The notes below the pieces were generated by a model. It saw nothing but the letters and a program-made list of their open reading frames with translations, was not told the DNA's origin and ran no database searches. A stretch of DNA of 10,791 bases from a virus (lineage: Duplodnaviria > Heunggongvirae > Uroviricota > Caudoviricetes). This document shows, piece after piece, positions 1-10,791 of this stretch. Within the stretch, counting starts at the first letter, position 1. Each line of letters begins with the position of its first letter. The translations under genes were made by a program, and so were the position numbers. The stretch is taken from positions 1 through 10,791 of IMG/VR virus record IMGVR_UViG_2802429244_000006. One strand, given 5' to 3'.

Positions 1-49
1 GATTTCCCACGCGAATTTTCATCGCTTTCACCATCAGCTCCATGCTCAT
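1..49 (-). CDS. Hypothetical protein, N-terminal 16 codons only (gene runs off the window start)
   Basis: ATG at 49-47 (minus) with GGAGG at 60-56, 6 nt upstream; ATG overlaps the TGA of the upstream gene (ATGA). Translation MSMELMVKAMKIRVGN... Confidence 0.4.
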   Translation of the reverse strand, partial: MSMELMVKAMKIRVGN

Positions 50-270
50 AACACACCTCCCAGGCGTTTAAACATTTTTCCGGACTGAAACACCGCCAGT
101 GGATAACTGATGGTGTAGTTACGCCCCAGTAATTCACACACAACTTTCTGGCTTTCGGTGCTGACCAGGCAAACCCGCAGAACGTGACCGTTGCTGGTGG
201 CGAACCACTGCCCCACACGGGGGCAACGGTTGTATCGGTGATACAGCGAATTCACAACGCGACGAATCAT
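46..270 (-). CDS. Hypothetical phage protein (74 aa)
   Basis: ORF-track ORF; ATG at 270-268 overlaps upstream TGA (ATGA); GGAGG 7 nt upstream (282-278). No recognisable domain. Confidence 0.5.
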   Translation of the reverse strand: MIRRVVNSLYHRYNRCPRVGQWFATSNGHVLRVCLVSTESQKVVCELLGRNYTISYPLAVFQSGKMFKRLGGVL

Positions 271-282
271 GGACGCACCTCC
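265..282. repeat. Copy 1 of an 18-nt gene-junction repeat (aatcatggacgcacctcc); 17/18 identical to 456..473
   Basis: Direct comparison of the two stretches; on the minus strand each copy carries GGAGG, the upstream stop and the downstream ATG. Confidence 0.8.
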
Positions 283-461
283 GCTGTTGTGATGTATTTA
301 ACCGGGCTGCCTTTCATTGCGATGGTTTCACACATCTCCGCGGCTTTACGTTCCGCTGTTTTCCTGGATTTATAGCGGCGGTGCCAGACAGATGTATCCG
401 TGCGAACTGATACATCGTTTCTGTATTCCGTTGTAGAAATAATAATTTCGTAACTAATCAT
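267..461 (-). CDS. Hypothetical phage protein (64 aa from the internal ATG; the ORF track extends to 476)
   Basis: ATG at 461-459 overlaps the TGA of the 493-aa ORF (ATGA) and has GGAGG 8 nt upstream (474-470). The upstream ATG at 476 has no SD. Translation MISYEIIISTTEYRNDV...AEVRP. Confidence 0.45.
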   Translation of the reverse strand: MISYEIIISTTEYRNDVSVRTDTSVWHRRYKSRKTAERKAAEMCETIAMKGSPVKYITTAEVRP

Positions 462-473
462 GGACGCGCCTCC
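456..473. repeat. Copy 2 of the 18-nt gene-junction repeat (aatcatggacgcgcctcc)
   Basis: 17/18 identity with 265..282; same relationship to stop/start codons on the minus strand. Confidence 0.8.
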
Positions 474-1939
474 CATTGATTACGGCGGAAAGCGGTGTGA
501 TTCAGGTGGGTTTCAGCTTCACGGAATGCTTCAATACAGCTCTCGTAGTACCGCATTGTGCGCAGACTTAACCCAAGCTGAAGCATCATCAGGCCATCAA
601 GGGTGATGTAATAACCACGCAGGGAGTCACCATAGATGTGATAAGTGCCCGGTATGAAATTGCGGGTAAAAAAATCGCGCGAGCAGTTCAGATACTCGAT
701 TTTGTCGACGATGTTCTGGTGCATGCGCTTGAAGTGGCAGGCAACATGCAGGGAGAAAATAACGGCCTTGCCGTTGACAACTTCAATTTTCAGGTATGGG
801 GAAGTTGGGACTGTAGCCATGATGGCAGCCTCCTTGAGCAGTGAAAAACTTCCACCACCGGAGCTGCGAAACTCATGGGTGGTGAACTGAACAGGGTTCG
901 CAGTACCGGCGCTCAAGGAAACCGGCGAGCCTTTCGGCTCCCCTGCCCAGCCCACCATAATTCTGGCATGCGCGAGCATGGACGATAAAAAAGACGCTGG
1001 CGCGTCGTATATCGCCTCGAGCAATTCCGGGCTGCGACCCCCGGCACCCGCTTTATAAGGTGCGGAGACAGTGTAACGTCCCGAAATTGCAGAATCAATA
1101 TTTAGGCTTGAAACATTCATATGCTTACTGGTATTTTTACTAACGCAAATGTTCTTGGATGTTACTGGCTTACTTCTCTGTGAAGTTGCCTTTACCAACG
1201 TTGAGCGAGCCGGGTCACTACCCGGCTTTTTTTCACCGCTGCCAACCAATAACCTGAAATAACCCCATTTTCGGGTGATACCAGCGAGTCCCTCGCGGTT
1301 CTGCTTCCTCCATAACCCGATAAAAGCAGCCATAAACGGTTCCACAGCAACAATTGCGCGACGTGACAACAATCCGTCCGGCGTCATGAACTCATGGGTG
1401 TCTGTAGGAATTTGATAGGCGTTCACCAGATTGCGGCATTTATCATCTGACAAACCGGTTTTTGCTTTCAGTTGGCGATATCCGGCATAGCCCTCACGAA
1501 TGGTACCCCTTTTGATTTGCTCAACTGTTTCGGCAACATGGCTGACTTTTTCTTCCACCTGAGTGATCCGTTTCTGCTGACGAACGGCTTCAAGAGCCAT
1601 CGCAGCAACCATTTCGATTTCGCTCATTGGCTTACGGATCTGTTCTTCCAGTTCGCGCCAGCGATCTACCAGGCGAGCAGTGAATTCAGGACAGAGCTGT
1701 GCGACGACAATGATGCTGTCGCGCTTACCTTGTTCTCCTTCAAACAGGTAATGCTCATATTGAACTTTAAAACCTAAGTTATTGATTTTCTCGGAAACAG
1801 CCATTGGCGGTTTCCGGATGATGTTTTTAGCAACCAGGCGTTCGATACTACGTTTAACATCTGAGTGCTGACTACCCACCAGCTCTGCGATCTCAACGCT
1901 GGTCATGGATGCTTTATCGTTAAAAATTGCGGTGTTCAC
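458..1939 (-). CDS. Rha-family phage regulatory protein (antirepressor-like), 493-aa composite ORF; possibly a fusion or read-through of two ancestral genes
   Basis: GTG start at 1939-1937 with AAGGAGG 5 nt upstream. N-terminus (MTSVEIAELVGSQHSDVKRSIERLV...) fits the Phage_pRha pattern. Residues about 230-370 are low-complexity (S/K/G/P-rich) and overlap an AT-rich stretch and a plus-strand terminator. A distinct C-terminal region starts near MATVPTSPYLKIEVVNGK. Confidence 0.65.
   Translation of the reverse strand: MNTAIFNDKASMTSVEIAELVGSQHSDVKRSIERLVAKNIIRKPPMAVSEKINNLGFKVQYEHYLFEGEQGKRDSIIVVAQLCPEFTARLVDRWRELEEQIRKPMSEIEMVAAMALEAVRQQKRITQVEEKVSHVAETVEQIKRGTIREGYAGYRQLKAKTGLSDDKCRNLVNAYQIPTDTHEFMTPDGLLSRRAIVAVEPFMAAFIGLWRKQNREGLAGITRKWGYFRLLVGSGEKKPGSDPARSTLVKATSQRSKPVTSKNICVSKNTSKHMNVSSLNIDSAISGRYTVSAPYKAGAGGRSPELLEAIYDAPASFLSSMLAHARIMVGWAGEPKGSPVSLSAGTANPVQFTTHEFRSSGGGSFSLLKEAAIMATVPTSPYLKIEVVNGKAVIFSLHVACHFKRMHQNIVDKIEYLNCSRDFFTRNFIPGTYHIYGDSLRGYYITLDGLMMLQLGLSLRTMRYYESCIEAFREAETHLNHTAFRRNQWEARP
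1208..1233 (+). terminator. Rho-independent terminator-like hairpin on the plus strand, inside the minus-strand Rha ORF
   Basis: Stem GCCGGGT (1209-1215), loop CACT, stem ACCCGGC (1220-1226), then TTTTTTT (1227-1233). Upstream flank is not A-rich, so it is directional for the plus strand. Confidence 0.5.
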
Positions 1940-1976
1940 TGATACCTCCTTACGGATAAATTATTGGGATCACGGT

Positions 1977-2723
1977 TCAGCACTTCTCAGTTACGCGCTT
2001 TTTCCAGAGCCATGCATCCCTATAAGCAGCCTCGATCCCATGGCATATCCGCATATCCTGAAACCAATGCTTCCGTTCCCATATCTGCCAAGATCGAGGT
2101 TTAATGCGATCGCTGATGCCTGTGATGGAGAACATAGCCAGTACGGGTACTTTCAGGCGTCTTCCTTTCTGGATATGCTTACGCCAGTCATTGCGAAGAT
2201 TTGCCCGCATGCTGAAATAAGCACCAACAGGAAATGCAACAAGAAATGCCGCTACCTGAACAAAAAGGAGTCGCCAGAAATTATGGGAATCATCTGGAGT
2301 GAGTTTGTTCTTCTGTTCAATACCAAACCGCGCCTTGTTACCTTCATCTGGACGGTTAGTGCTTTTGGACTTGGCGCCTGGCTCGGACACTGGCTTGCCA
2401 AAAATCGAGATAAGCGGAAAGAGTTCAATGCCGTCGCTGATGAATTGTTCCTGATCCTTGACGCCTTCCGCGAGGGTTGCCGAGACGGAAAACGGGATAT
2501 GCCACATATATCCAGAGACGATTTCAGAAGACTGCGCCCTCACCTGAGCAGCAGACAAGCACGAAGTTACCAACAAGCCGTAGATAACTTTTTTAACGCA
2601 CTGAAAGCTAGTGAGCTCTATGAAGACAGGCGGATTGTTCCGGTTATCAAAACTCCCGCAGAAATTCTTCCCAGCCTTAACACGCTGATTAAGTTTCTGA
2701 AGCATCGCTAAGCACTGTGACAT
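1977..2723 (-). CDS. Hypothetical protein (248 aa) with one predicted hydrophobic segment
   Basis: ATG at 2723-2721 with GGAGG 6 nt upstream (2734-2730), one nt after the stop of the upstream 75-aa ORF; 37 nt before the Rha gene RBS. A 268-aa ORF on the opposite strand (1905..2711) covers the same DNA, so the coding strand is not certain. Confidence 0.5.
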   Translation of the reverse strand: MSQCLAMLQKLNQRVKAGKNFCGSFDNRNNPPVFIELTSFQCVKKVIYGLLVTSCLSAAQVRAQSSEIVSGYMWHIPFSVSATLAEGVKDQEQFISDGIELFPLISIFGKPVSEPGAKSKSTNRPDEGNKARFGIEQKNKLTPDDSHNFWRLLFVQVAAFLVAFPVGAYFSMRANLRNDWRKHIQKGRRLKVPVLAMFSITGISDRIKPRSWQIWERKHWFQDMRICHGIEAAYRDAWLWKKRVTEKC

Positions 2724-2724
2724 A

Positions 2725-2952
2725 TCACACCTCCGATTGCTTACCTTGCCCCTCTTCTGTGTGCGCTAAATCAGGATGGATATACGGGATACTTGGATCC
2801 AGATGGCAGAGAATAGCTACGTCCTCTGGAACACCTCTCGTTTTCCACTTTCCAACACCTTGACTGCCACGAGGCTTTCCTTTCTTTGGGAATCTGCGGC
2901 CAATAGCGGCATTGGTTTTAAATTGAGTTTTTAATATTTCATAAAGGGTCAT
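2725..2952 (-). CDS. Hypothetical small basic protein (75 aa) in the cro-equivalent position
   Basis: First ORF leftward of the divergent region next to the CI-like gene. Weak SD. No obvious helix-turn-helix. Lys/Arg-rich centre (GRRFPKKGKPRGSQGVGKWKTRG). Confidence 0.3.
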   Translation of the reverse strand: MTLYEILKTQFKTNAAIGRRFPKKGKPRGSQGVGKWKTRGVPEDVAILCHLDPSIPYIHPDLAHTEEGQGKQSEV

Positions 2953-3063
2953 TCTTTAGTCTCACACCGGATACTCTGTTATCCAAGAATGTTAAACGCG
3001 AGAATCCAAAGTATCAAGAGATTCTGTTACTTTAGTATCAGCAGCCATGAAAGGAGAAGAAAA
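2953..3063. promoter_or_regulatory. Divergent operator/promoter region (OR-like) between the cro-position gene and the CI-like repressor
   Basis: 111-bp gap between divergent genes. Candidate leftward sigma-70 promoter on the minus strand: TTGATA (3017-3012), 17-nt spacer, TAACAT (2994-2989). GTATCA motifs at 3011-3016 and 3035-3040; the 10-mer aaagtatcaa (3008-3017) recurs at 3747-3756. Confidence 0.4.
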
Positions 3064-3720
3064 ATGAAATCTTTAGGTGAACGCCTCATCAACGCACGAC
3101 AAAAAGCTGGGTTAACGCAAGATGCGTTGGCTAAAAAAGCAGGGGTCACCAGAGTTGCAATCAGTAAAGCCGAGCAAGGCCTTACAAAAAGTTTCAACGG
3201 TGACACCCTTTTTAAAGTCGCAGCTGCACTGCAGTGTTCACCGCAGTGGCTTCAGAGCGGAGATGAAAAAGATAAGCATTGGGAAAATAATGTTAAGAGC
3301 TGCCCACAGAGAGACACAGCACACTCTTACCCTGTAATTAACTGGGTTCAGGCAGGATTATTCGCAACTGCTGGTGATGACTACAACATGTATGATCAGG
3401 ATAACTGGAGGCATTCTGTAAAATACGCTGGTGAGAGGGGGTTCTGGCTGGAAGTGCACGGAGACTCAATGACTTCGCCCGTAGGAATAACATTTCCTGA
3501 AGGAATGTCGATCCTTGTCAACCCAGATAAAGAAGTTTTTTCAGGGTGTTACGTCATCGCCAGAAAAAAATCCACCAATGAAGCAACATTCAAAAAATAT
3601 ATTTCTGAAATGGGAAAGGCGTTTCTAAAGCCCCTTAATCCACAATATCCAATCATAGAAATGGACAATGATTGCGAAATAGTAGGTGTTGTAGTTGATG
3701 CCAGGTGGGATATTTTCTGA
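3064..3720 (+). CDS. cI: Lambda-CI-like repressor (N-terminal XRE-type HTH, C-terminal LexA/S24-like autoproteolytic domain), 218 aa
   Basis: ATG 3064 with AGGAG 7 nt upstream. HTH: LINARQKAGLTQDALAKKAGVTRVAISKAEQG. C-terminal GDSM (catalytic Ser), FKK (Lys) and LNPQYP closely resemble the lambda CI C-terminal domain. Candidate Ala-Gly cleavage sites in VQAGLFATAGDD. The ORF-track start at 2989 lacks an RBS. Confidence 0.9.
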   Translation: MKSLGERLINARQKAGLTQDALAKKAGVTRVAISKAEQGLTKSFNGDTLFKVAAALQCSPQWLQSGDEKDKHWENNVKSCPQRDTAHSYPVINWVQAGLFATAGDDYNMYDQDNWRHSVKYAGERGFWLEVHGDSMTSPVGITFPEGMSILVNPDKEVFSGCYVIARKKSTNEATFKKYISEMGKAFLKPLNPQYPIIEMDNDCEIVGVVVDARWDIF

Positions 3721-3823
3721 CCAGACTCAAAACACAAAAAGAAACAAAAGTATCAAAAATCACTTGCCACACCTTGATACCTTAGTTACCATAAAACAAA
3801 GTTCGTAACTGAGGTATCATCTC
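3721..3823 (+). promoter_or_regulatory. OL/pL-like operator-promoter region with an inverted repeat GTATCAA-N17-TTGATAC (3750..3780)
   Basis: Inverted repeat arms at 3750-3756 and 3774-3780. Candidate promoter TTGCCA (3764-3769), 17-nt spacer, TACCAT (3787-3792). Shares the aaagtatcaa 10-mer with the OR-like region. Confidence 0.4.
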
Positions 3824-4240
3824 ATGATCAATAAAGCTACAACTCTTGACTGTCTTGAAGAACTGAAAAACCTCGGCAGTCTCATTACACTAATAGCCAA
3901 AGCAACGCCAGATGCTACGCTCTCTGGCGATATCGAGTCATGCGCAGGACTGGCATGGGATATGACAAATAGCATATCCAGAAAGCTATCGTCAGCAATG
4001 CTTTTACAGAACAAAAATTCTGCAATCAACAACCGTCTTCGCACCCAACGCGAAGCCTGCGGCTTAACAACCGCCGAACTCGCCAGGCTGCTCGATCTCG
4101 ATGAAGAAATTATCATCCAGTGGGAGAGCGGAGAGTGTGAACCAACCATCAGTATGCTTATCCCACTGGCAAATATTCTTGGCTGCGATCCGATGTGGCT
4201 GTTAACCGGTAAACCAACAGCAGGAGATACTTGCGCATGA
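3824..4240 (+). CDS. Helix-turn-helix (XRE-family) DNA-binding protein, 138 aa, HTH in the C-terminal half
   Basis: ATG 3824 with GAGG 9 nt upstream. HTH-like segment LRTQREACGLTTAELARLLDLDEEIIIQWESGECEPTISMLIPLANILG. First gene after the CI-like repressor on the same strand. Confidence 0.65.
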   Translation: MINKATTLDCLEELKNLGSLITLIAKATPDATLSGDIESCAGLAWDMTNSISRKLSSAMLLQNKNSAINNRLRTQREACGLTTAELARLLDLDEEIIIQWESGECEPTISMLIPLANILGCDPMWLLTGKPTAGDTCA

Positions 4241-4602
4241 AAAAGTTCAAAAACATAACCGTTCTCCATGTTGATTACTTTGATTATACAAACCCGGACC
4301 TTCTCCCGGAGGTTGTAAAAGCAATAGATGTTGCCGATATAGTGATTAGAGGAAAGAGAATTGTCAAAAACAGGCTCGCATGCACTTCAGGAGCAATGAC
4401 AGAAACAACCTCACAGCAAGATAATTACGAAGGCATTTGTCTGGAGCCTGATTCATTTGCGGTAAATGTTTATCATTTATTGCATGCAACACAGGTATTA
4501 CATATGTCCAGTAATCACGAAACGAAAATACTCGGCAGCGAAATTCTGAATTTTGCATGTGAGTATGCAAAAGCTGCTGCCGAAAAAGAATTAGCGCAAT
4601 AA
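4237..4602 (+). CDS. Hypothetical protein (121 aa), translationally coupled to the upstream HTH gene
   Basis: ATG 4237 overlaps the upstream TGA (ATGA); AGGAG 10 nt upstream. No recognisable domain. AT-rich codon usage. Confidence 0.55.
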   Translation: MKKFKNITVLHVDYFDYTNPDLLPEVVKAIDVADIVIRGKRIVKNRLACTSGAMTETTSQQDNYEGICLEPDSFAVNVYHLLHATQVLHMSSNHETKILGSEILNFACEYAKAAAEKELAQ

Positions 4603-4800
4603 CAACAAATATGCTCTGAACGTTTATTACGGTTTTATCGCCGGGGATTGTTACAACCTTTATTCACAGATGGAACTCAGTTATGACTTTCCTGAAAAAT
4701 AAGGCATCGTATAAAACTGCCTGCCTCATTGCACAACATGGAGATTCTTATCTTCATATAGCCAACCTGTATTTGCGCAAAGCATATGGGAGATAAATAA

Positions 4801-4989
4801 ATGAAAGAAAAACAACAGAACATAACACATAAAAAAGTAAGAGTGTTGCTAACCATTGAAAATGGTGAAGTAATTTACTCAAAACATCTGTTGGATAATG
4901 AATTCGTTGGCTGCATGGATACATTTCTGTGGATGGCAAAAAGAGCTGGCTACACGATTATTCCACCAGCAAAGGAGCAAACATTATGA
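4801..4989 (+). CDS. Hypothetical small protein (62 aa)
   Basis: ATG 4801 with GGGAG 8 nt upstream; follows a 198-bp AT-rich intergenic region; stop overlaps the next start (ATGA). Confidence 0.5.
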   Translation: MKEKQQNITHKKVRVLLTIENGEVIYSKHLLDNEFVGCMDTFLWMAKRAGYTIIPPAKEQTL

Positions 4990-5567
4990 ATAATTCAGAG
5001 TTCCGACCAGAAGTTACGCCACATGGCATAAAAATTGGCAATACAACCATTGATTATGTTGAGGCCGTACAGCGACTTAATAATGGTGAATACGATTATC
5101 CAAATTCACACGGTTTAAGAATCCTTCAGTGTCTTGCAGAAGCCGATGATGCCAGATTACTGGGAAGATTTTCAGTCGATATGAAAGTTACTCAATGGCG
5201 CTGGCTGTATGTGACAACGTTTATAAATGAAGAAGAAGGCAAGAACGGCACCATTGATATCCCTAACGATAACGGAACTACAGATCGCGCAGTTATTTAT
5301 AAGGGGAAGCATGGTTGCATGAGTATATACCCAGGACCACTTCGCATTGCCCTGCAGAACCATGTCGAATGGGGATTTATTGAAAAATATGGCGAAGCTG
5401 AAGGCATGGGGCGAGTTCTGTTTCTCTATCAAAAAATGCTCATCGCAGATCCTGATAATGGTTTCATTGTCTCTGCTATGGGGCGCGAAGGGCTTGAACT
5501 CCTTCTGGATGAAATGATTCATGATCTGAATACTCATGGTATGCCAGAAGCACCAGTGACACATTAA
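4986..5567 (+). CDS. Hypothetical protein (193 aa)
   Basis: ATG 4986 with AGGAG (4973-4977) 8 nt upstream; ATGA overlap with the preceding ORF. The ORF-track start at 4929 is an upstream extension without an RBS. No recognisable domain. Confidence 0.6.
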   Translation: MNNSEFRPEVTPHGIKIGNTTIDYVEAVQRLNNGEYDYPNSHGLRILQCLAEADDARLLGRFSVDMKVTQWRWLYVTTFINEEEGKNGTIDIPNDNGTTDRAVIYKGKHGCMSIYPGPLRIALQNHVEWGFIEKYGEAEGMGRVLFLYQKMLIADPDNGFIVSAMGREGLELLLDEMIHDLNTHGMPEAPVTH

Positions 5568-5612
5568 ATATTAAGAAGAATATAATTCTTTCGTTTTTTA
5601 CTAACCGTTTAT

Positions 5613-5720
5613 ATGAAAAGCAACCGTGAATTAAACAGAGTAAAACTAATTTTAATCCTTGCCACAGTGCTGATACTAACTGAAATCATTATTCTCTTTA
5701 TTGCGCTGTCAGTCGGTTAA
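5613..5720 (+). CDS. Putative small hydrophobic peptide (35 aa, one predicted transmembrane helix)
   Basis: Not in the ORF track (under 60 aa). ATG 5613 to TAA 5718-5720: MKSNRELNRVKLILILATVLILTEIIILFIALSVG. No SD, so low confidence. Confidence 0.25.
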   Translation: MKSNRELNRVKLILILATVLILTEIIILFIALSVG

Positions 5721-5743
5721 AAATATCGGGATACCACAGACCA

Positions 5744-5932
5744 ATGAGACTGTATTTCACAATAGTAATTTTACTGGCAATTATCGCATGTATTTACGGA
5801 TTACTTGTTCCGTTCCTTATATCCATGAAGGATACGATAGCAGTTATTTCTGGCTTTGCACTGGCGTTTCTGACCCCGCCCTGCATTTATGCCATTTACA
5901 AGGGGCTTTCTTTCACTAAGGATAAAAGATGA
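5744..5932 (+). CDS. Small membrane protein (62 aa, two predicted transmembrane helices)
   Basis: ORF-track ORF; hydrophobic stretches IVILLAIIACIYGLLVPFLI and AVISGFALAFLTPPCIYAIY; stop overlaps the ATG of the SPFH gene (ATGA). Weak or absent SD; alternative in-frame ATG at 5825. Confidence 0.45.
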   Translation: MRLYFTIVILLAIIACIYGLLVPFLISMKDTIAVISGFALAFLTPPCIYAIYKGLSFTKDKR

Positions 5933-6756
5933 AAAAAATTATTTTTGCTTTAGCCATTGTTCTGCCGACTATTGGCCTTGTCGGTTGCGATCGCGTTGAA
6001 CCAGGTAATGTTGGCATCAAGGTAAATAAACTGGGCGACGACAAAGGCGTCGGTGAGGTGGTCGGTGTTGGTCGCTACTGGACTGGCTGGAATACTGAAG
6101 TTTATATCTTCCCCACCTTCAAGCAAATGAAGACCTACGATGAACCGTTCAGTTTCCAGATGAGTGACGGTACAACCATCGGCTATCACATTGGCGTGGC
6201 CTACAAAGTTGATCCATCCAAAGTTACCACGGTGTTTCAGACCTACCGCAAAGGCGTGGATGACATTACAGACACCGACCTGCGCCAGAAGATCGCCGAC
6301 GCACTCAACCGACTGGCCAGCAAAATGACCACTGACAAATTTATCGACGGCGGCAAGTCTGAGCTGCTGGATGAAGCTCTTAAAGACATTCAGGCAGAGA
6401 TGACACCTATCGGTATTCAGGTAATGAGCCTCTCATATGTGGGTAAGCCGGAGTACCCGCCAACCGTTATCGACAGCATTAATGCCAAAGTCACGGCGAA
6501 CCAGAAAACCCTACAACGCGAGCAGGAAGTTAAACAGCGCGAAGCGGAAGCCAACATGTTGCGCGCGGAAGCTGCCGGACAGGCTGATGCGATTCGCACA
6601 AAAGCCCAGGCTGAAGCCGATGCTATTCGTTTACGCGGTGAAGCTCTGCGCCAGAACCCCGGTGTTATGGAGCTGGAAGCCATCAATAAATGGAACGGCA
6701 CACTGCCGCAATACATGACCAGCGGTGCCAATACACCATTTATCCAGGTTAAATAA
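5929..6756 (+). CDS. SPFH/band-7 (prohibitin/HflK/C-like) domain lipoprotein, 275 aa
   Basis: ATG 5929 with AAGGA 6 nt upstream. Signal peptide with lipobox LVGC (Cys20). Central SPFH-like region and C-terminal Ala/Glu-rich coiled coil (QREAEANMLRAEAAGQADAIRTKAQAEADAIRLRGEA) typical of the family. Confidence 0.8.
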   Translation: MKKIIFALAIVLPTIGLVGCDRVEPGNVGIKVNKLGDDKGVGEVVGVGRYWTGWNTEVYIFPTFKQMKTYDEPFSFQMSDGTTIGYHIGVAYKVDPSKVTTVFQTYRKGVDDITDTDLRQKIADALNRLASKMTTDKFIDGGKSELLDEALKDIQAEMTPIGIQVMSLSYVGKPEYPPTVIDSINAKVTANQKTLQREQEVKQREAEANMLRAEAAGQADAIRTKAQAEADAIRLRGEALRQNPGVMELEAINKWNGTLPQYMTSGANTPFIQVK

Positions 6757-6796
6757 CTTATATGCCCGGCAGGCCGCCGGGCTAAGGGAAAAGCAG

Positions 6797-7156
6797 ATGA
6801 ACACCCATAATGCCCAACCGCAAATAATGAACTATGACCCGAATCTGACGTCATGCGGACGCATGGCAAAACAAACCGTTCGATTAACTTTCGGGTTATG
6901 GGAATACCGCGAAACATTCGAAGTTACTGTCGGCGGCAATCTGACCGGGCTGGATGTTATCAGTTGCGCTATTGAAAGCCTGTACGCAACGCTGCTTTAT
7001 GAAGAAGTCGAGGATGAGCGCGATATCATAGCCACCATTAATATCGGCGGACTGGAATGCAAGGATGAAAACCTGTCCGGAGAGCTCTGGCTTGCCGGGA
7101 TGCTTATCTCAGCAGAAATTATCAGTATTGAACCCGCAACAAACATACGGCTCTGA
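6797..7156 (+). CDS. Hypothetical protein (119 aa)
   Basis: ATG 6797 with AAGGGA 7 nt upstream; in frame with the longer ORF-track ORF 6725..7156, whose start would overlap the SPFH gene. No recognisable domain. Confidence 0.5.
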   Translation: MNTHNAQPQIMNYDPNLTSCGRMAKQTVRLTFGLWEYRETFEVTVGGNLTGLDVISCAIESLYATLLYEEVEDERDIIATINIGGLECKDENLSGELWLAGMLISAEIISIEPATNIRL

Positions 7157-7187
7157 AGTTCTCACTATTCAGAGAGCAGGAGAAAAA

Positions 7188-7430
7188 ATGTTCGCTTTGA
7201 TTAATCAGGGACAGCTGTATACCGACAGTGCCGGTTACCCGGTAAAAATTATTCGCTGCATAAATAACACTGTGTTGTACAGAAGAATGGATGGGCGAAC
7301 ACAGTCGGTAAAAATAAACGATTTTAATGAACTGTTTGAACGACTCGATCACCAGGAATACCGACAAATTCTGGCAGAAACAGAACAGGAAACTCATCTG
7401 AAAAAATTACGAGCCATGAAAAGGAAGTAA
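7188..7430 (+). CDS. Hypothetical small phage protein (80 aa)
   Basis: ATG 7188 with AGGAG 5 nt upstream; in frame within ORF-track ORF 7065..7430. Translation MFALINQGQLYTDSAGYPVKIIRCINNTVLYRRMDGRTQ... Confidence 0.55.
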   Translation: MFALINQGQLYTDSAGYPVKIIRCINNTVLYRRMDGRTQSVKINDFNELFERLDHQEYRQILAETEQETHLKKLRAMKRK

Positions 7431-7433
7431 AGA

Positions 7434-7580
7434 ATGAATAAAGCGTTTGAACTATGGGTACGCCAGCGTTACGGCAATCGCTATGACCTGACGCGAGATG
7501 TTGACGGTTTCTACTGTCGTGAAATTGTGAAACGAATGTTTGAAGTGTGGTGCCACTGCCGTGGGCTGAATGTTGTATGA
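7434..7580 (+). CDS. Hypothetical small protein (48 aa, Cys-containing)
   Basis: Not in the ORF track. ATG 7434 with AAGGAAG 6 nt upstream. Translation MNKAFELWVRQRYGNRYDLTRDVDGFYCREIVKRMFEVWCHCRGLNVV. Confidence 0.4.
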   Translation: MNKAFELWVRQRYGNRYDLTRDVDGFYCREIVKRMFEVWCHCRGLNVV

Positions 7581-7588
7581 GGTGAACT

Positions 7589-7798
7589 GTGGGGCTGGAT
7601 TGCGTACCTATATCAACCTACTGCCGCAACGCAGGAGAAACGGTTGATGCCGTTAACAAACGGATACAAAGAGGAATATGGAAAGAAGGGGTACATGTAT
7701 TAAAAGTCGACGGAGTTAAAGAACGTTGGGTCGACTTAATGGAGATTACAAAATGGGCAAGAAAGAACAAGGATCACTATCTCTCCCTAGAGGAGTAA
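7589..7798 (+). CDS. xis: Excisionase-like DNA-binding protein (69 aa)
   Basis: GTG start 7589 with GAGGTG just upstream; sits immediately 5' of the integrase and overlaps it by 46 nt, as xis does in lambdoid phages. Motif KEGVHVLKVDGVKERWVDL is consistent with small winged-helix excisionase-like proteins. Confidence 0.55.
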   Translation: MGLDCVPISTYCRNAGETVDAVNKRIQRGIWKEGVHVLKVDGVKERWVDLMEITKWARKNKDHYLSLEE

Positions 7799-8925
7799 CT
7801 ATTCGCCAGCATAAAACTGGTAGCACTCTGGTTATCACTTTTACATATAAAGGGGTTCTGTGTCGGGAGCCCCTCTCCAGAATGGAAGTAAACGCGCGCG
7901 GTGTGAAGTACGCTGAGCGTCTGCTGGGAGAAATAAAAAATCAGATTATCGATGGTACCTTCGAATATGCAAAATACTTCCCCAACTCCCAAAAGCTGGA
8001 GTTGTTCGGGGGAGTGAAAAAAAACAAAAATATAAAATCTTACCTGGATGAATACCTGATTATCTGCCAGAACCGTAACCTGTCACCATCGACAATTAGA
8101 GGTTATGAAAAATGCCTGTCGGCGCTGTCAGCATTGCATAAATTTCATGTATCAGAACTGACACCTGCAGTACTAAAAAACTGGATCGCCAACAGAAAAA
8201 CAAAACTGAAAACTATCCGCAATAATCTTTCATTCCTGCGCAGCGCCATAGATGAAGCGGTGACCGATGGTTTGTTAACAATAAATCCTGTCACGCTAGT
8301 CAGCGCCAGCCGGTATCACGTATTGGACAACACACCAGGCAGTGATGATTACGAGGTCGATCCTTTTACACCAGCGGAGACGGCAGCAATCTATGACGCC
8401 TGTCATTACCCGGAATGGCGAAATCTGTTTCGCTTTGCCTTTAATACAGGACTGCGCAGCTCAGAATTGTGCGCGTTGCGCTGGACGGATATAGACTTTA
8501 TCGGCAACACCGCGCATGTTCAGACTGCAAGCGTAGTCGGGGTAATCAAAAGCACCAAAACAAAAGCCGGCACCCGCAAAGTGCAACTGAACAGCGAAGC
8601 GCTGGCGGCTCTTCAGGCACAAAAGCCCTACACGGCGCTAAAGAGCGACTTCATATTCAGCGATCCGAAAACTCGCGCTCCTTGGGCAAACGCAGATGCG
8701 ATCCGAAAAAAAGCCTGGGTACCAACCCTTAAAAAAGCTGGTGTACGCTATCGCAATCCGTACCAGACACGCCACACGTTCGCCACTCGGCACATTAGCC
8801 AGGGCGTTAACCTGTTCTGGCTTGCTGGTCAGATGGGGCATAAAGGACCGGAAATGCTGTTCAGACATTACGGCTCTTACCTTGCAGAATACGATGGAAA
8901 AACGGCGATTTCTGCAACCCCGTAA
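7753..8925 (+). CDS. int: Lambda-type tyrosine integrase (site-specific recombinase), 390 aa from ATG 7753
   Basis: ATG 7753 with GGAG 8 nt upstream (ORF track begins at TTG 7726). N-terminal arm-binding-like region resembling lambda Int; C-terminal catalytic motifs (LRSSELCALRW..., RHTFATRHISQG..., GHKGPEMLFRHYGSY) with the conserved Arg/His/Arg/Tyr pattern. Confidence 0.9.
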   Translation: MGKKEQGSLSLPRGVTIRQHKTGSTLVITFTYKGVLCREPLSRMEVNARGVKYAERLLGEIKNQIIDGTFEYAKYFPNSQKLELFGGVKKNKNIKSYLDEYLIICQNRNLSPSTIRGYEKCLSALSALHKFHVSELTPAVLKNWIANRKTKLKTIRNNLSFLRSAIDEAVTDGLLTINPVTLVSASRYHVLDNTPGSDDYEVDPFTPAETAAIYDACHYPEWRNLFRFAFNTGLRSSELCALRWTDIDFIGNTAHVQTASVVGVIKSTKTKAGTRKVQLNSEALAALQAQKPYTALKSDFIFSDPKTRAPWANADAIRKKAWVPTLKKAGVRYRNPYQTRHTFATRHISQGVNLFWLAGQMGHKGPEMLFRHYGSYLAEYDGKTAISATP

Positions 8926-9057
8926 CGGCAAAATATTTCAAAATGTTGTACAGAATCAGGACGTTATCGGGACAACAATATGTACGTAAAATGCACATAA
9001 TTCATTGTTTGAAAAAATAAATCGTTCATATTCAATAAATTGGATTAATCACGATCA

Positions 9058-9084
9058 CGGGTTCAACTCCCGCCAGCTCCACCA
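9058..9084 (+). other. ssrA: 27-nt copy of the 3' end of tmRNA (ssrA): T-arm 3' side plus acceptor 3' strand ending CCA; interpreted as the att core at a prophage/island junction
   Basis: CGGGTTCAACTCCCGCCAGCTCCACCA matches the E. coli tmRNA 3' terminus as I recall it (...GCGGGTTCAACTCCCGCCAGCTCCACCA). Sequence immediately 5' (cacgatca) does not match ssrA, so this is a fragment, not a complete gene. Confidence 0.75.
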
Positions 9085-9118
9085 CTTTTTAGTTGTTTGA
9101 AGTACAATGAAGTCTACT

Positions 9119-9152
9119 AAGCCCGCACAGCACAAGCTCTGCGGGCTTTTTT
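9119..9152 (+). terminator. Rho-independent terminator
   Basis: GC-rich stem AAGCCCGCA / TGCGGGCTT followed by a run of six T (9147-9152); 35 nt downstream of the ssrA-like CCA end. Confidence 0.7.
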
Positions 9153-9249
9153 ACGTCTATTGTCGTCCAGTGAGAATTGCTGAGAACTATCACTTATGGC
9201 ACCCTGAATGGGACCCACTAAGAAGGGTCCAAAAACCGAGGGTCCCAAA

Positions 9250-10479
9250 ATGGCAAAAATCGCTAAGAAGCTCACTGACACTGAAATCAAAAGCACCAAG
9301 CCAGCCGACAAAGAAATCAACTTGTTTGACGGAGATGGTTTGATACTACGAATCGCTCCCCTCTCGAAAGGAGGAAAGAAGAATTGGTATTTCAGGTATG
9401 CAGTGCCAGTCAGTAAAAAAAGAACCAAAATGAGCCTTGGGACATATCCTCACCTTACACTGGCAAGAGCCAGAGCCTTACGAGATGAATACCTTTCCTT
9501 GCTTGCTAATGGCATTGATCCCCAAGTTCATAACAACGATAAAGCTAATGCCTTAAAGAATGCTACTGAACACACTCTCCAAGCCGTGGCAAGGAAATGG
9601 TTGGATGAGAAGGTAAAGACCTCAGGTATCTCACAAGACCATGCAGCAGACATCTGGCGCAGCTTAGAGAGAAATGTCTTTCCTGGCCTGGGTAATGTCC
9701 CTATCAATGAGATCCGACCTAAGCTCTTAAAACAACACCTTGATCCTATTGAGCAACGAGGCGTATTGGAAACTCTACGCCGCATCATTTCACGTCTGAA
9801 TGAAATCTTCCGGTGGGCAGCCACTGAAGAACTTATTGAGTTCAATCCGGCTGACAACCTTGGTCAAAGATTCAGTAAACCAAAAAAGCAAAATATGCCT
9901 GCCCTTCCCCCAAGCGAATTGCCAAGGTTTATGGAATCTTTGACGAATGCGTCAATCCGGCTGGAAACACGTATGCTAATTGAATGGCAATTGTTGACAT
10001 GGGTTCGTCCGGGTGAAGCCGTTCGCGCAAGGTGGTCTGATATTGATACAACCAACAACATTTGGAACATTCCTGCTGATTTTATGAAAATGAAAAAGCC
10101 TCACAAAGTTCCTTTGAGTAAAGAAGCTTTGCACATCCTTGAATTAATGAAATCAATAAGTGGGCATAGAGAATGGGTTTTCCCCAGCATTAAAGCGCCT
10201 CTTAATCATATGCATGAACAAACAGCCAACGCAGCTATTATCCGAATGGGGTTTGGAGGCGAACTTGTAGCTCACGGTATGCGTTCGATTGCAAGAACAG
10301 CGGCAGAGGCGTCTGGTAAGTTCAGAGCTGAAGTTCTTGAGGCAGCACTCGCCCACTCTAAAAAAGATGAAATTATCGCAGCATACAATCGTGCAGAATA
10401 TCTGATAGAACGACAGAGTTTGATGCAATGGTGGAGTGATTACGTTCAAACTCAAAGAGCTAAAGCTATCGCTGCTTGA
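9250..10479 (+). CDS. int: P4-type (IntA-like) tyrosine integrase, 409 aa from ATG 9250
   Basis: ATG 9250 with GAGGG 7 nt upstream. N-terminus MAKIAKKLTDTEIKSTKPADKEINLFDGDGLILRI fits the P4-integrase arm-binding N-terminal pattern. Conserved blocks DIWRSLER, GVLETLRR, KKQNMP, ARWSDID, HGMRSIART, EAALAH, AYNRAEYL, MQWW. The ORF-track start at 9208 is an upstream extension. Confidence 0.9.
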   Translation: MAKIAKKLTDTEIKSTKPADKEINLFDGDGLILRIAPLSKGGKKNWYFRYAVPVSKKRTKMSLGTYPHLTLARARALRDEYLSLLANGIDPQVHNNDKANALKNATEHTLQAVARKWLDEKVKTSGISQDHAADIWRSLERNVFPGLGNVPINEIRPKLLKQHLDPIEQRGVLETLRRIISRLNEIFRWAATEELIEFNPADNLGQRFSKPKKQNMPALPPSELPRFMESLTNASIRLETRMLIEWQLLTWVRPGEAVRARWSDIDTTNNIWNIPADFMKMKKPHKVPLSKEALHILELMKSISGHREWVFPSIKAPLNHMHEQTANAAIIRMGFGGELVAHGMRSIARTAAEASGKFRAEVLEAALAHSKKDEIIAAYNRAEYLIERQSLMQWWSDYVQTQRAKAIAA

Positions 10480-10791
10480 CTGATACAGGGGATTAGCAAG
10501 AAGGATAGGGATAGCCTGGAAAGCCCATATACTGACGAATGCCCCTTAGCTAAAACATTCTCATCGGATTGAAAGCGCACATGTACATAAAACCAGTATA
10601 AAAACATAAGGTTATATAACTAAACTTTGATACGTATGCTTCCATATGTTTTTAGTGTTTGATATGGTGAAAAAAAGATACTGATGTTTTTTTATGCTTT
10701 CATTGCTTGTTTCCTTAGTGGGCTACCATATGGATTTCTTTGAAAAAACTAATGCTGACAAAAATTCAATAGGTTTTACCTATCAAGATTA

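Follow-up and report, generated by a model that had tools for sequence, protein, structure and literature searches.

The window analysed here is a stretch of 10,791 nucleotides (nt) of viral DNA (IMG/VR record IMGVR_UViG_2802429244_000006, positions 1 to 10,791) in which two long open reading frames (ORFs) occupy the same DNA on opposite strands. Two genes are under selection at this locus, one on each strand: the minus frame and its start codon are maintained, and the plus gene lies inside the minus ORF. We regard the locus as probably a conserved, fully embedded antisense gene pair, with two real protein-coding genes, and on comparative grounds it appears to be a rare, well-supported antisense gene overlap, of a known but contested kind. 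The elements on which the argument turns are the following.

1905..2711, plus strand: ORF of 268 amino acids (aa) with an ATG start
1977..2723, minus strand: ORF of 248 aa with an ATG start, second gene of the cro-side (early lytic) operon
2283..2711, plus strand: the real plus gene, 142 aa, wholly within the minus ORF, antisense to it and in codon register
1905..2282, plus strand: upstream extension of the plus ORF, 126 codons, open in the phiP27 lineage only
1977..2285, minus strand: conserved domain at the C-terminal end of the minus protein (residues ~147-248), made up of a membrane helix and then a tail rich in Trp and Arg
2283..2390, both strands: zone in which all three codon positions are slow, comprising the first ~36 plus codons and the conserved minus segment ...TNRPDERNEGRIGVEQKNKLTPDDSH

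Coordinates and lengths of the two ORFs are exactly those given in a first-pass annotation of the window, and the shared segment is 735 nt long. The coordinates place the ORFs in codon register, position 1 of a plus codon facing position 3 of a minus codon and the middle positions being shared, so that a stop in the antisense frame can come only from TTA, CTA or TCA. In the window's other genes TTA and CTA together make up 19.1% of Leu codons, and TCA 19.6% of Ser codons. With this codon usage, the probability that the plus frame is open across all 248 minus codons is ~3e-4, and that the minus frame is open across the 142-codon plus gene ~5e-3. The 268-codon antisense frame, singled out earlier as unusual, is thus beyond chance over the minus ORF, but only the last 142 of its 268 codons are conserved as open. 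Codon usage and third-position GC content had been proposed as a way of telling the strands apart. When such single-sequence statistics were computed (GC content at positions 1 to 3, purine at position 1), the two frames were alike in both halves of the locus, and the strand was not settled by them.

Substitution patterns among homologues did discriminate. Homologues of the minus protein (P0002-P0010) are 243-289 aa long and 36-62% identical to it; the set aligned here, obtained by a word-indexed protein search, comprised nine clusters, of which the eight diverged ones span that same identity range. Nonsynonymous and synonymous differences per site, and their ratio (pN/pS), were derived from Nei-Gojobori counts on the codon alignment, separately for region A (2288..2723) and region B (1977..2285). 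In region A, differences per site amounted to 0.51 at third positions of the plus frame, 0.385 at first and 0.28 at second positions; pN/pS was 0.26-0.67 in the plus frame and 0.79-1.37 in the minus frame. The picture is reversed in region B, with 0.41, 0.23 and 0.17 differences per site at third, first and second positions of the minus frame, and a pN/pS of 0.17-0.42 in the minus frame and 0.74-1.38 in the plus frame. The asymmetry was seen in 36 of 36 pairs in each region (an excess at plus third positions in A, minus third positions faster than first ones in B), and a sliding window over five sequences without gaps, for which alignment is no issue, gave it as well. The selected strand changes at about 2285-2330. 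As judged from these rates, the plus frame is the selected frame in region A and the minus frame the selected frame in region B. The first-pass annotation had named substitutions synonymous in one frame only as the result that would settle a single coding strand; the answer was split, plus in 2288..2723 and minus in 1977..2285, and therefore neither single-strand reading is right.

One of these two readings is that of the Prokaryotic Genome Annotation Pipeline (PGAP), which calls just the minus gene at this locus, the plus ORF being in that case a shadow ORF. It has in its favour that gene callers picked the minus ORF in most metagenomic contigs, and that an in-register antisense frame is generally poor in stops, shadow ORFs being common there. 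The concentration of region A substitutions at plus third positions, in every pair and with the low plus-frame pN/pS, speaks against it, as do the relatives of the plus protein described below, and we consider it exceedingly improbable. The other reading, that the plus strand alone codes (either the 268-aa ORF or a 224-aa protein from 2040, as in the phiP27 record) and that the minus ORF is the shadow, is very improbable as well. The phiP27 GenBank and RefSeq records do annotate the plus gene alone, and that gene is certainly real. Upstream of 2283, however, the plus frame has a pN/pS of ~1 and contains one to six stops over 1905..2282 in every lineage other than that of phiP27, while the minus frame there has the pN/pS of 0.17-0.42 given above and 26 invariant residues in an alignment of the region-B domain (A1, 76% mean column identity). 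The minus frame is moreover kept free of stops specifically in this clade, as shown below. Taken together, the single-strand readings are effectively excluded. The probability that the plus frame is open over 1905..2282 in one lineage is ~0.09, and this segment is probably not coding on the plus strand. Since it is open in the phiP27 lineage only and lacks plus-frame selection, the 268-aa ORF and the 224-aa protein are both over-extended.

Near the change of strand lies a zone that evolves slowly. In the sliding window all three codon positions stay at or below 0.2 over ~2290-2400, and plus third positions reach ~0.45 further on; among 13 lineages, plus third positions change at a rate of 0.17 over codons 1-10 and of 0.38 over codons 11-20. 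Such slow evolution over ~2283..2390 is consistent with a double constraint, and the same zone also holds the plus translation start. In the overlap beyond it, the minus frame shows stop avoidance only, with a pN/pS of ~1.

Stop avoidance was assessed on loci retrieved by tblastn with the region-B domain alone, a sample that is independent of how gene callers treated region A. With the loci of more distant plus relatives added, it comprised 18 distinct lineages (17 diverged relatives and that of the window); in the 16 that were compared, plus-protein identity falls as low as 28-36%. All 18 have a minus frame that is open at full length, across the entire plus gene. In 13 lineages the plus gene has 195 Leu and 101 Ser codons in all, and TTA, CTA and TCA do not occur among them, where ~19% would be expected. 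Other A-ending and rare codons are freely used in these genes, and conserved Leu columns turn over among CTG, CTC, CTT and TTG. The probability of an open minus frame in a single lineage is 0.003-0.02 with the window's codon usage, and 0.01-0.04 with general E. coli usage; the lineages form at least six deep clades. Viral contigs supplied the control, 25 distinct distant genes of the plus family: 22 of them have one to eight in-register antisense stops (mean 3.3). The difference between 18 of 18 and 3 of 25 open frames is highly significant (Fisher p = 2e-9). Chance was considered as an explanation of the open minus frame and was rejected on the codon-usage odds together with the stop counts in these controls.

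One of the three stop-free controls (L048) has its family gene, at ~3001..3333 on the plus strand, covered by a 239-aa antisense ORF (2872..3591, minus strand) with no Pfam match; this could be a shadow ORF of high-GC DNA, or else overprinting that took place independently a second time. In Morganella morganii (L039, GCA_002417235.1) both genes have been called, at 3788..4447 on the minus strand (219 aa) and 4001..4438 on the plus strand (145 aa). The near-identical L040 has a call for the plus gene alone in the overlap, with a 91-aa minus ORF beside the overlap. Even within one species, annotation of the module is inconsistent.

The plus gene has several marks of a real gene. Its signals and the predicted helix of its product are as follows.

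2265..2270, plus strand: ribosome-binding site AAGGAG, 12 nt before the ATG at 2283; its antisense codes for part of the invariant FWRLL of the minus protein
2331..2399, plus strand: membrane helix predicted by reading the sequence, residues ~17-39, followed by KNRDKRKE

The AAGGAG motif is kept in 12 of 13 lineages (AAGTAG in L009). From the initial M(G/S)xIW (M(G/S)xIWSEF...) to a terminal (K/R)HR and stop, the frame is open in all lineages; in every locus with a minus homologue the in-register plus frame is open over 146-202 codons, with stops upstream of that Met. The family escaped word-indexed searching, the 268-aa ORF having recovered by that method the phiP27 protein only, and an exhaustive HMMER search was therefore needed: with the 142-aa product, phmmer against 1.84 billion representatives gave 64 matches at E<=1e-3, of which 14 were at E<=1e-10. 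Many of the matching proteins (relatives P0011-P0073) are 120-145 aa long and align end to end, several of them 1-142 to 1-142. They share an N-terminal hydrophobic helix, the motif G-H-W-L-A-x-x-R-D-[KR]-R-K-E-F-N, and a C-terminal LLxFxx[HR][RK] with a basic C-terminus. In an alignment of 33 members (A2), N49 is invariant, and G31, G35, R42, R45 and L135 are at least 90% conserved. The AlphaFold2 model built with A2 has a predicted local distance difference test (pLDDT) score of 95.7 and a predicted template modelling score of 0.77; the predicted membrane helix falls within a long modelled helix that covers residues 16-67. The layout of the protein would be an N-terminal membrane helix, the basic motif RDKRKEFN and a helical C-terminal domain ending in KHR.

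Genes of this family also stand alone, without an antisense ORF, as in L037, where an antisense stop is present. The 64 relatives, these stand-alone genes among them, the confident model and the conserved Shine-Dalgarno (SD) sequence and ATG all argue against the plus ORF being a mere shadow of the minus gene, and the stand-alone members argue against systematic mis-annotation. In a distant relative (L062), the family gene lies directly downstream of an S24/helix-turn-helix (HTH) repressor gene, on the same strand. The plus product, described earlier as protein-like, is more than a look-alike over 2283..2711, with its selected frame, its relatives and its model. Judging from sequence features, the plus product most likely crosses the inner membrane once and belongs to a phage-associated family that is widespread but uncharacterised. 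A few members match PHROGs without assigned function (phrog_13469, phrog_34525). The leading guess for its role, a tentative one that we hold to be rather unlikely, is an accessory function on the lysogen side such as superinfection exclusion, or defence; the guess draws on the N-terminal anchor with its basic cytoplasmic domain, the repressor orientation, and the position in L062 after an S24 repressor gene.

The minus gene was favoured in the first-pass annotation for its strong ribosome-binding site and its fit in the operon. Its start and its predicted helix are these.

2721..2734, minus strand: start region, with GGAGG at 2730..2734, the TGA stop of the cro-like gene at 2725..2727 and the ATG at 2721..2723, 10 nt beyond the plus stop (2709..2711)
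2211..2279, minus strand: membrane helix predicted by reading the sequence, residues ~149-171, FWRLLFVQVAAFLVAFPVGAYFS

Together with the plus helix at ~2331..2399, this agrees with the earlier remark that each product contains a plausible hydrophobic helix. In the window, GGAGG is 6 nt upstream of the ATG, with 1 nt between the ATG and the stop of the cro-like gene. All 13 lineages have the ATG, and 12 of the 13 have GAGG-N7-ATG. The context GAGGnGTGAcATGTCACA is kept in 12 of 13, right after the stop of the upstream gene, whatever that gene is. In related loci the minus homologue follows a cro-type (or ORF6N) gene in the same direction, mostly with a 1-nt gap or an ATGA overlap. The invariant residues of the conserved domain include F149, W150, L152, L153, Q156, F164 and Y169. 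The grounds for preferring the minus strand therefore hold as regards the cro-adjacent position, the GAGG-N7-ATG spacing and the purifying selection on the C-terminal third, but not over 2283..2711, where it is the plus strand that is selected. The conserved SD sequence and ATG on both strands lend indirect support to transcription and translation of both genes.

A 14-bp near-palindrome, TGTGACATATCACA, at 2716..2729 spans the minus ATG and the stop of the cro-like gene. In most other lineages it is a perfect palindrome, TGTGACATGTCACA, and its core GTGACATGTCACA is found in 11 of 13. A protein may bind there, or the palindrome may just reflect the conserved order of stop, SD sequence and start. 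In L006, an extra 155-aa gene (3694..4161, repressor strand) lies between the cro-type gene and the minus homologue, which suggests that this position accepts further repressor-oriented inserts.

A number of points weigh against a fully embedded pair. The minus frame shows no amino-acid-level constraint in region A (pN/pS ~1), and plus third positions there (0.51) are at least as fast as minus third positions in region B (0.41), so the N-terminal 145 residues may have no sequence-specific function. The AlphaFold2 model of the minus protein, made from nine sequences, averages a pLDDT of 40.9 and stays below 50 over residues 1-147. Short region-B-like proteins (P0106-P0109) occur in Serratia marcescens (96-120 aa) and in one metagenome (112 aa), and the domain may thus be able to work without a long N-terminal part. 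Scanning 1700..3100 for promoters and terminators gave no sigma-70 consensus promoter for the plus gene. The two proteins had no functional match in Pfam, PHROG, PADLOC or NCBIfam, nor had the plus fold in PDB or BFVD. Finally, the support for the gene pair is comparative, coming from the sequences of the 18 lineages.

Several of these points would also suit a pair of head-to-head genes that overlap only in part, the minus protein of ~135-190 aa being made from an internal start (GTG at residue 61, or GTG/ATG at residue 112). The stretch from 2723 to that start would then lie outside the functional protein, and might be translated only to carry ribosomes, for instance avoiding Rho-dependent polarity on the downstream early genes. 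The unconstrained minus frame in region A, the short region-B proteins found elsewhere and the low model confidence of the minus N-terminus all fit this arrangement, and 12 of 13 lineages share the GTG at residue 61, 7 of 13 a GTG/ATG at residue 112. The conserved in-frame ATG/GTG codons at minus residues 7, 61 and 112 are, however, the antisense of conserved His codons of the plus gene; their conservation requires no start function, and they are uninformative as start candidates. Region B offers no conserved start codon ahead of the membrane helix, the first being at residue 172; the start of the minus gene must therefore lie within the plus gene in any case. An untranslated stretch would leave unexplained both the absence of stops in 18 of 18 lineages and the conserved SD sequence and ATG at the cro stop, and a stretch translated against polarity would still be a translated antisense overlap. 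A partial overlap is therefore an unlikely account, though the main rival, and for the preferred one, the fully embedded pair, we infer that the N-terminal part of the minus ORF is translated.

As to function, Pfam, PHROG, PADLOC and NCBIfam were scanned with the long ORF and with the trimmed product for each strand; the minus product had no match and the plus scans gave nothing informative. PADLOC contained no defence or exclusion family at E<=1 for either product. The plus model had no significant match in PDB, and in BFVD it matched only its own entry, Q8W646. CII of lambda or 186 was considered as an identity for the minus product and rejected: the product matches no HTH domain or Phage_CP76 profile, and in relatives a separate Phage_CP76 gene follows the minus gene.

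The window is the immunity (switch) region of a phiP27-like E. coli prophage. The stretch is 99.7% identical to the Stx2e phage phiP27 and is carried, at 99.9% identity, by only 5 of 5,426 complete E. coli genomes. The overlapping genes are flanked by regulators, a Rha-type regulator gene lying downstream of the minus ORF on the minus strand and two further genes on the other side:

2725..2952, minus strand: gene in the cro position, 75 aa, phrog_4749, directly upstream of the minus ORF
2989..3720, plus strand: CI/LexA-type repressor (HTH_3 and Peptidase_S24), sharing the strand of the embedded plus gene

Public annotations of the locus differ on the strand because both strands code. The phiP27 GenBank and RefSeq records have the plus strand only (L13, 224 aa, window 2040..2711), and PGAP the minus strand only (a hypothetical protein of 242 aa, window 1977..2705).

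Just downstream of the gene pair there is a mosaic boundary. Over 453..2000, the window differs from phiP27 (L001) in that 1239..2000 resembles the L14 region (98%) and 453..1103 the L16 region (93%), L15 is missing, and phiP27 has nothing corresponding to 1104..1238; E. coli GB089 has yet other genes downstream of its Rha gene. Gathering-level Rfam matches to C4 antisense RNA (RF01695, 84 bits, 875..962, minus strand) and isrK (RF01394, 56 bits, 987..1063, minus strand) both fall within a 493-aa minus-strand ORF at 458..1939, so this ORF is probably not a single protein. It is more likely, on present evidence, a Rha-type gene with the two small-RNA genes of a P1/P7-type c4-ant immunity module, then an Ash/L16-like gene. 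Another pair of ORFs on opposite strands overlaps almost fully at 3817..4269 (minus, 150 aa) and 3824..4240 (plus, 138 aa); the plus member is the counterpart of the HTH protein L10 of phiP27, and the two are not in codon register.

The origin and working of the pair may be pictured as follows. The minus gene would be translated from the ATG coupled to the cro stop, its functional part being the C-terminal ~100-135 residues with the membrane helix and the Trp/Arg-rich tail, and its N-terminal ~145 codons the in-register antisense of the plus gene. Across the overlap the amino-acid sequence would be dictated by the plus gene, and the minus gene would impose a start codon, the absence of stops (no TTA, CTA or TCA) and an extra constraint over the first ~35 plus codons. 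The N-terminal 145 minus residues may simply be tolerated as a passenger, their translation bringing ribosomes that start at the cro stop to the conserved C-terminal domain. Because the plus family occurs alone, as in L037 and in 22 of the 25 controls, we infer that it is older and broader than the minus ORF. The overlap would then have arisen by overprinting, a divergent neighbour, the minus gene, having extended N-terminally over the older plus gene and gained in this way the cro-coupled start.

The geometry of the locus suggests that the minus gene would be made from the cro-side early transcript, during lytic growth, and the plus gene from a repressor-directed promoter (PRE/pC1-like, or one of its own), in or toward lysogeny. 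Transcription would be convergent, and the two genes would interfere with each other as mutually exclusive, alternative states. We can imagine, as a speculation to which we give somewhat less than an even chance, a conserved two-state module: one stretch of DNA encoding two membrane proteins, in which the lysis-lysogeny decision selects the product and one transcript silences the other. The lytic-side gene would have gained its translation start by overprinting 143 codons of an older lysogeny-side gene, from which selection in several enterobacterial genera would since have banned TTA, CTA and TCA. The inner membrane may be where both proteins act, in exclusion or in control of entry, as is reported for the unrelated pair of Pseudomonas phage Fc02 discussed below.

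Long antisense overlaps between protein genes of bacteria or phages are a matter of dispute, since for most candidates the evidence is expression data on ORFs that are young and unconserved. The evidence here is evolutionary and drawn from many lineages: a switch of the selected strand in the middle of the locus, the exclusion of three sense codons, and a control specific to the clade. It also exposes an annotation conflict, the phiP27 record and PGAP calling opposite strands and both being wrong in extent. Gene callers that forbid embedded genes on the opposite strand hide one partner, and the plus protein is missing from most annotations of the clade. A widespread uncharacterised membrane-protein family is now placed in the decision region of phages.

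Among known systems, the arrangement recalls the PRE path of lambda, whose transcript runs antisense through cro into cI; phage 186 has pE. The plus gene similarly lies between the gene in the cII position and cro, and points to cI, along the route that an establishment-type transcript would take; in L034, L035 and L039 a Phage_CP76 gene (186 CII-type) comes next downstream on the minus strand. Unlike in lambda, where no protein gene is known in the PRE antisense stretch, such a gene is present here. The scan of 1700..3100 gave no promoter for it, and inspection by eye of a conserved block 70-110 nt upstream of the plus gene gave no convincing -35/-10 or CII-type repeat. Lambda rexAB and P22 sieB are exclusion genes expressed in the lysogen and located next to the repressor. 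They share with the plus gene the setting of a small membrane protein in the immunity region, in the repressor orientation, the L062 gene even following an S24 repressor; the plus protein differs in having no match to a PADLOC, Pfam, PHROG-with-function or NCBIfam model, the likeness being one of setting.

Embedded antisense genes have been described in E. coli and Pseudomonas, and are reported to be young, lineage-restricted ORFs seen mainly by RNA-seq and ribosome profiling (for example PMC9927249, PMC8850804, bioRxiv 10.1101/2020.11.18.388249). These too are long ORFs antisense to and embedded in another gene, and they raise the same question of shadow ORF or gene. At the present locus the evidence is of an evolutionary kind: both partners are conserved from Escherichia, Klebsiella and Phytobacter to Morganella, and in metagenomes. 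The embedded gene here appears to be the older one, and it is the one under selection.

The closest parallel to this locus in our comparison is the B3-like Pseudomonas phage Fc02, in which olg1/olg2, on the repressor strand, overlap gene 10, which follows ner on the other strand (PMC9936078). According to that study, lysogens make the forward transcript and induced cells the reverse one, Gp10 was recovered in the insoluble fraction, and Olg1 and Gp10 each gave superinfection exclusion when expressed (PMC9936078). No sequence relationship to the Fc02 pair was seen: a tblastn search with both products of the window against 50,697 phage records, among which the presence of Fc02 was not checked, returned phiP27 only. 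The partners are not alike in kind, Olg1 being a 7.9-kDa soluble protein with an exonuclease-like similarity and the plus protein here a 142-aa predicted membrane protein, and the Fc02 evidence is experimental whereas ours is comparative, over 18 lineages. The architecture is nevertheless the same in both phages: a repressor-directed gene lies antisense to the gene that comes after a cro/ner-type gene in the early lytic operon.

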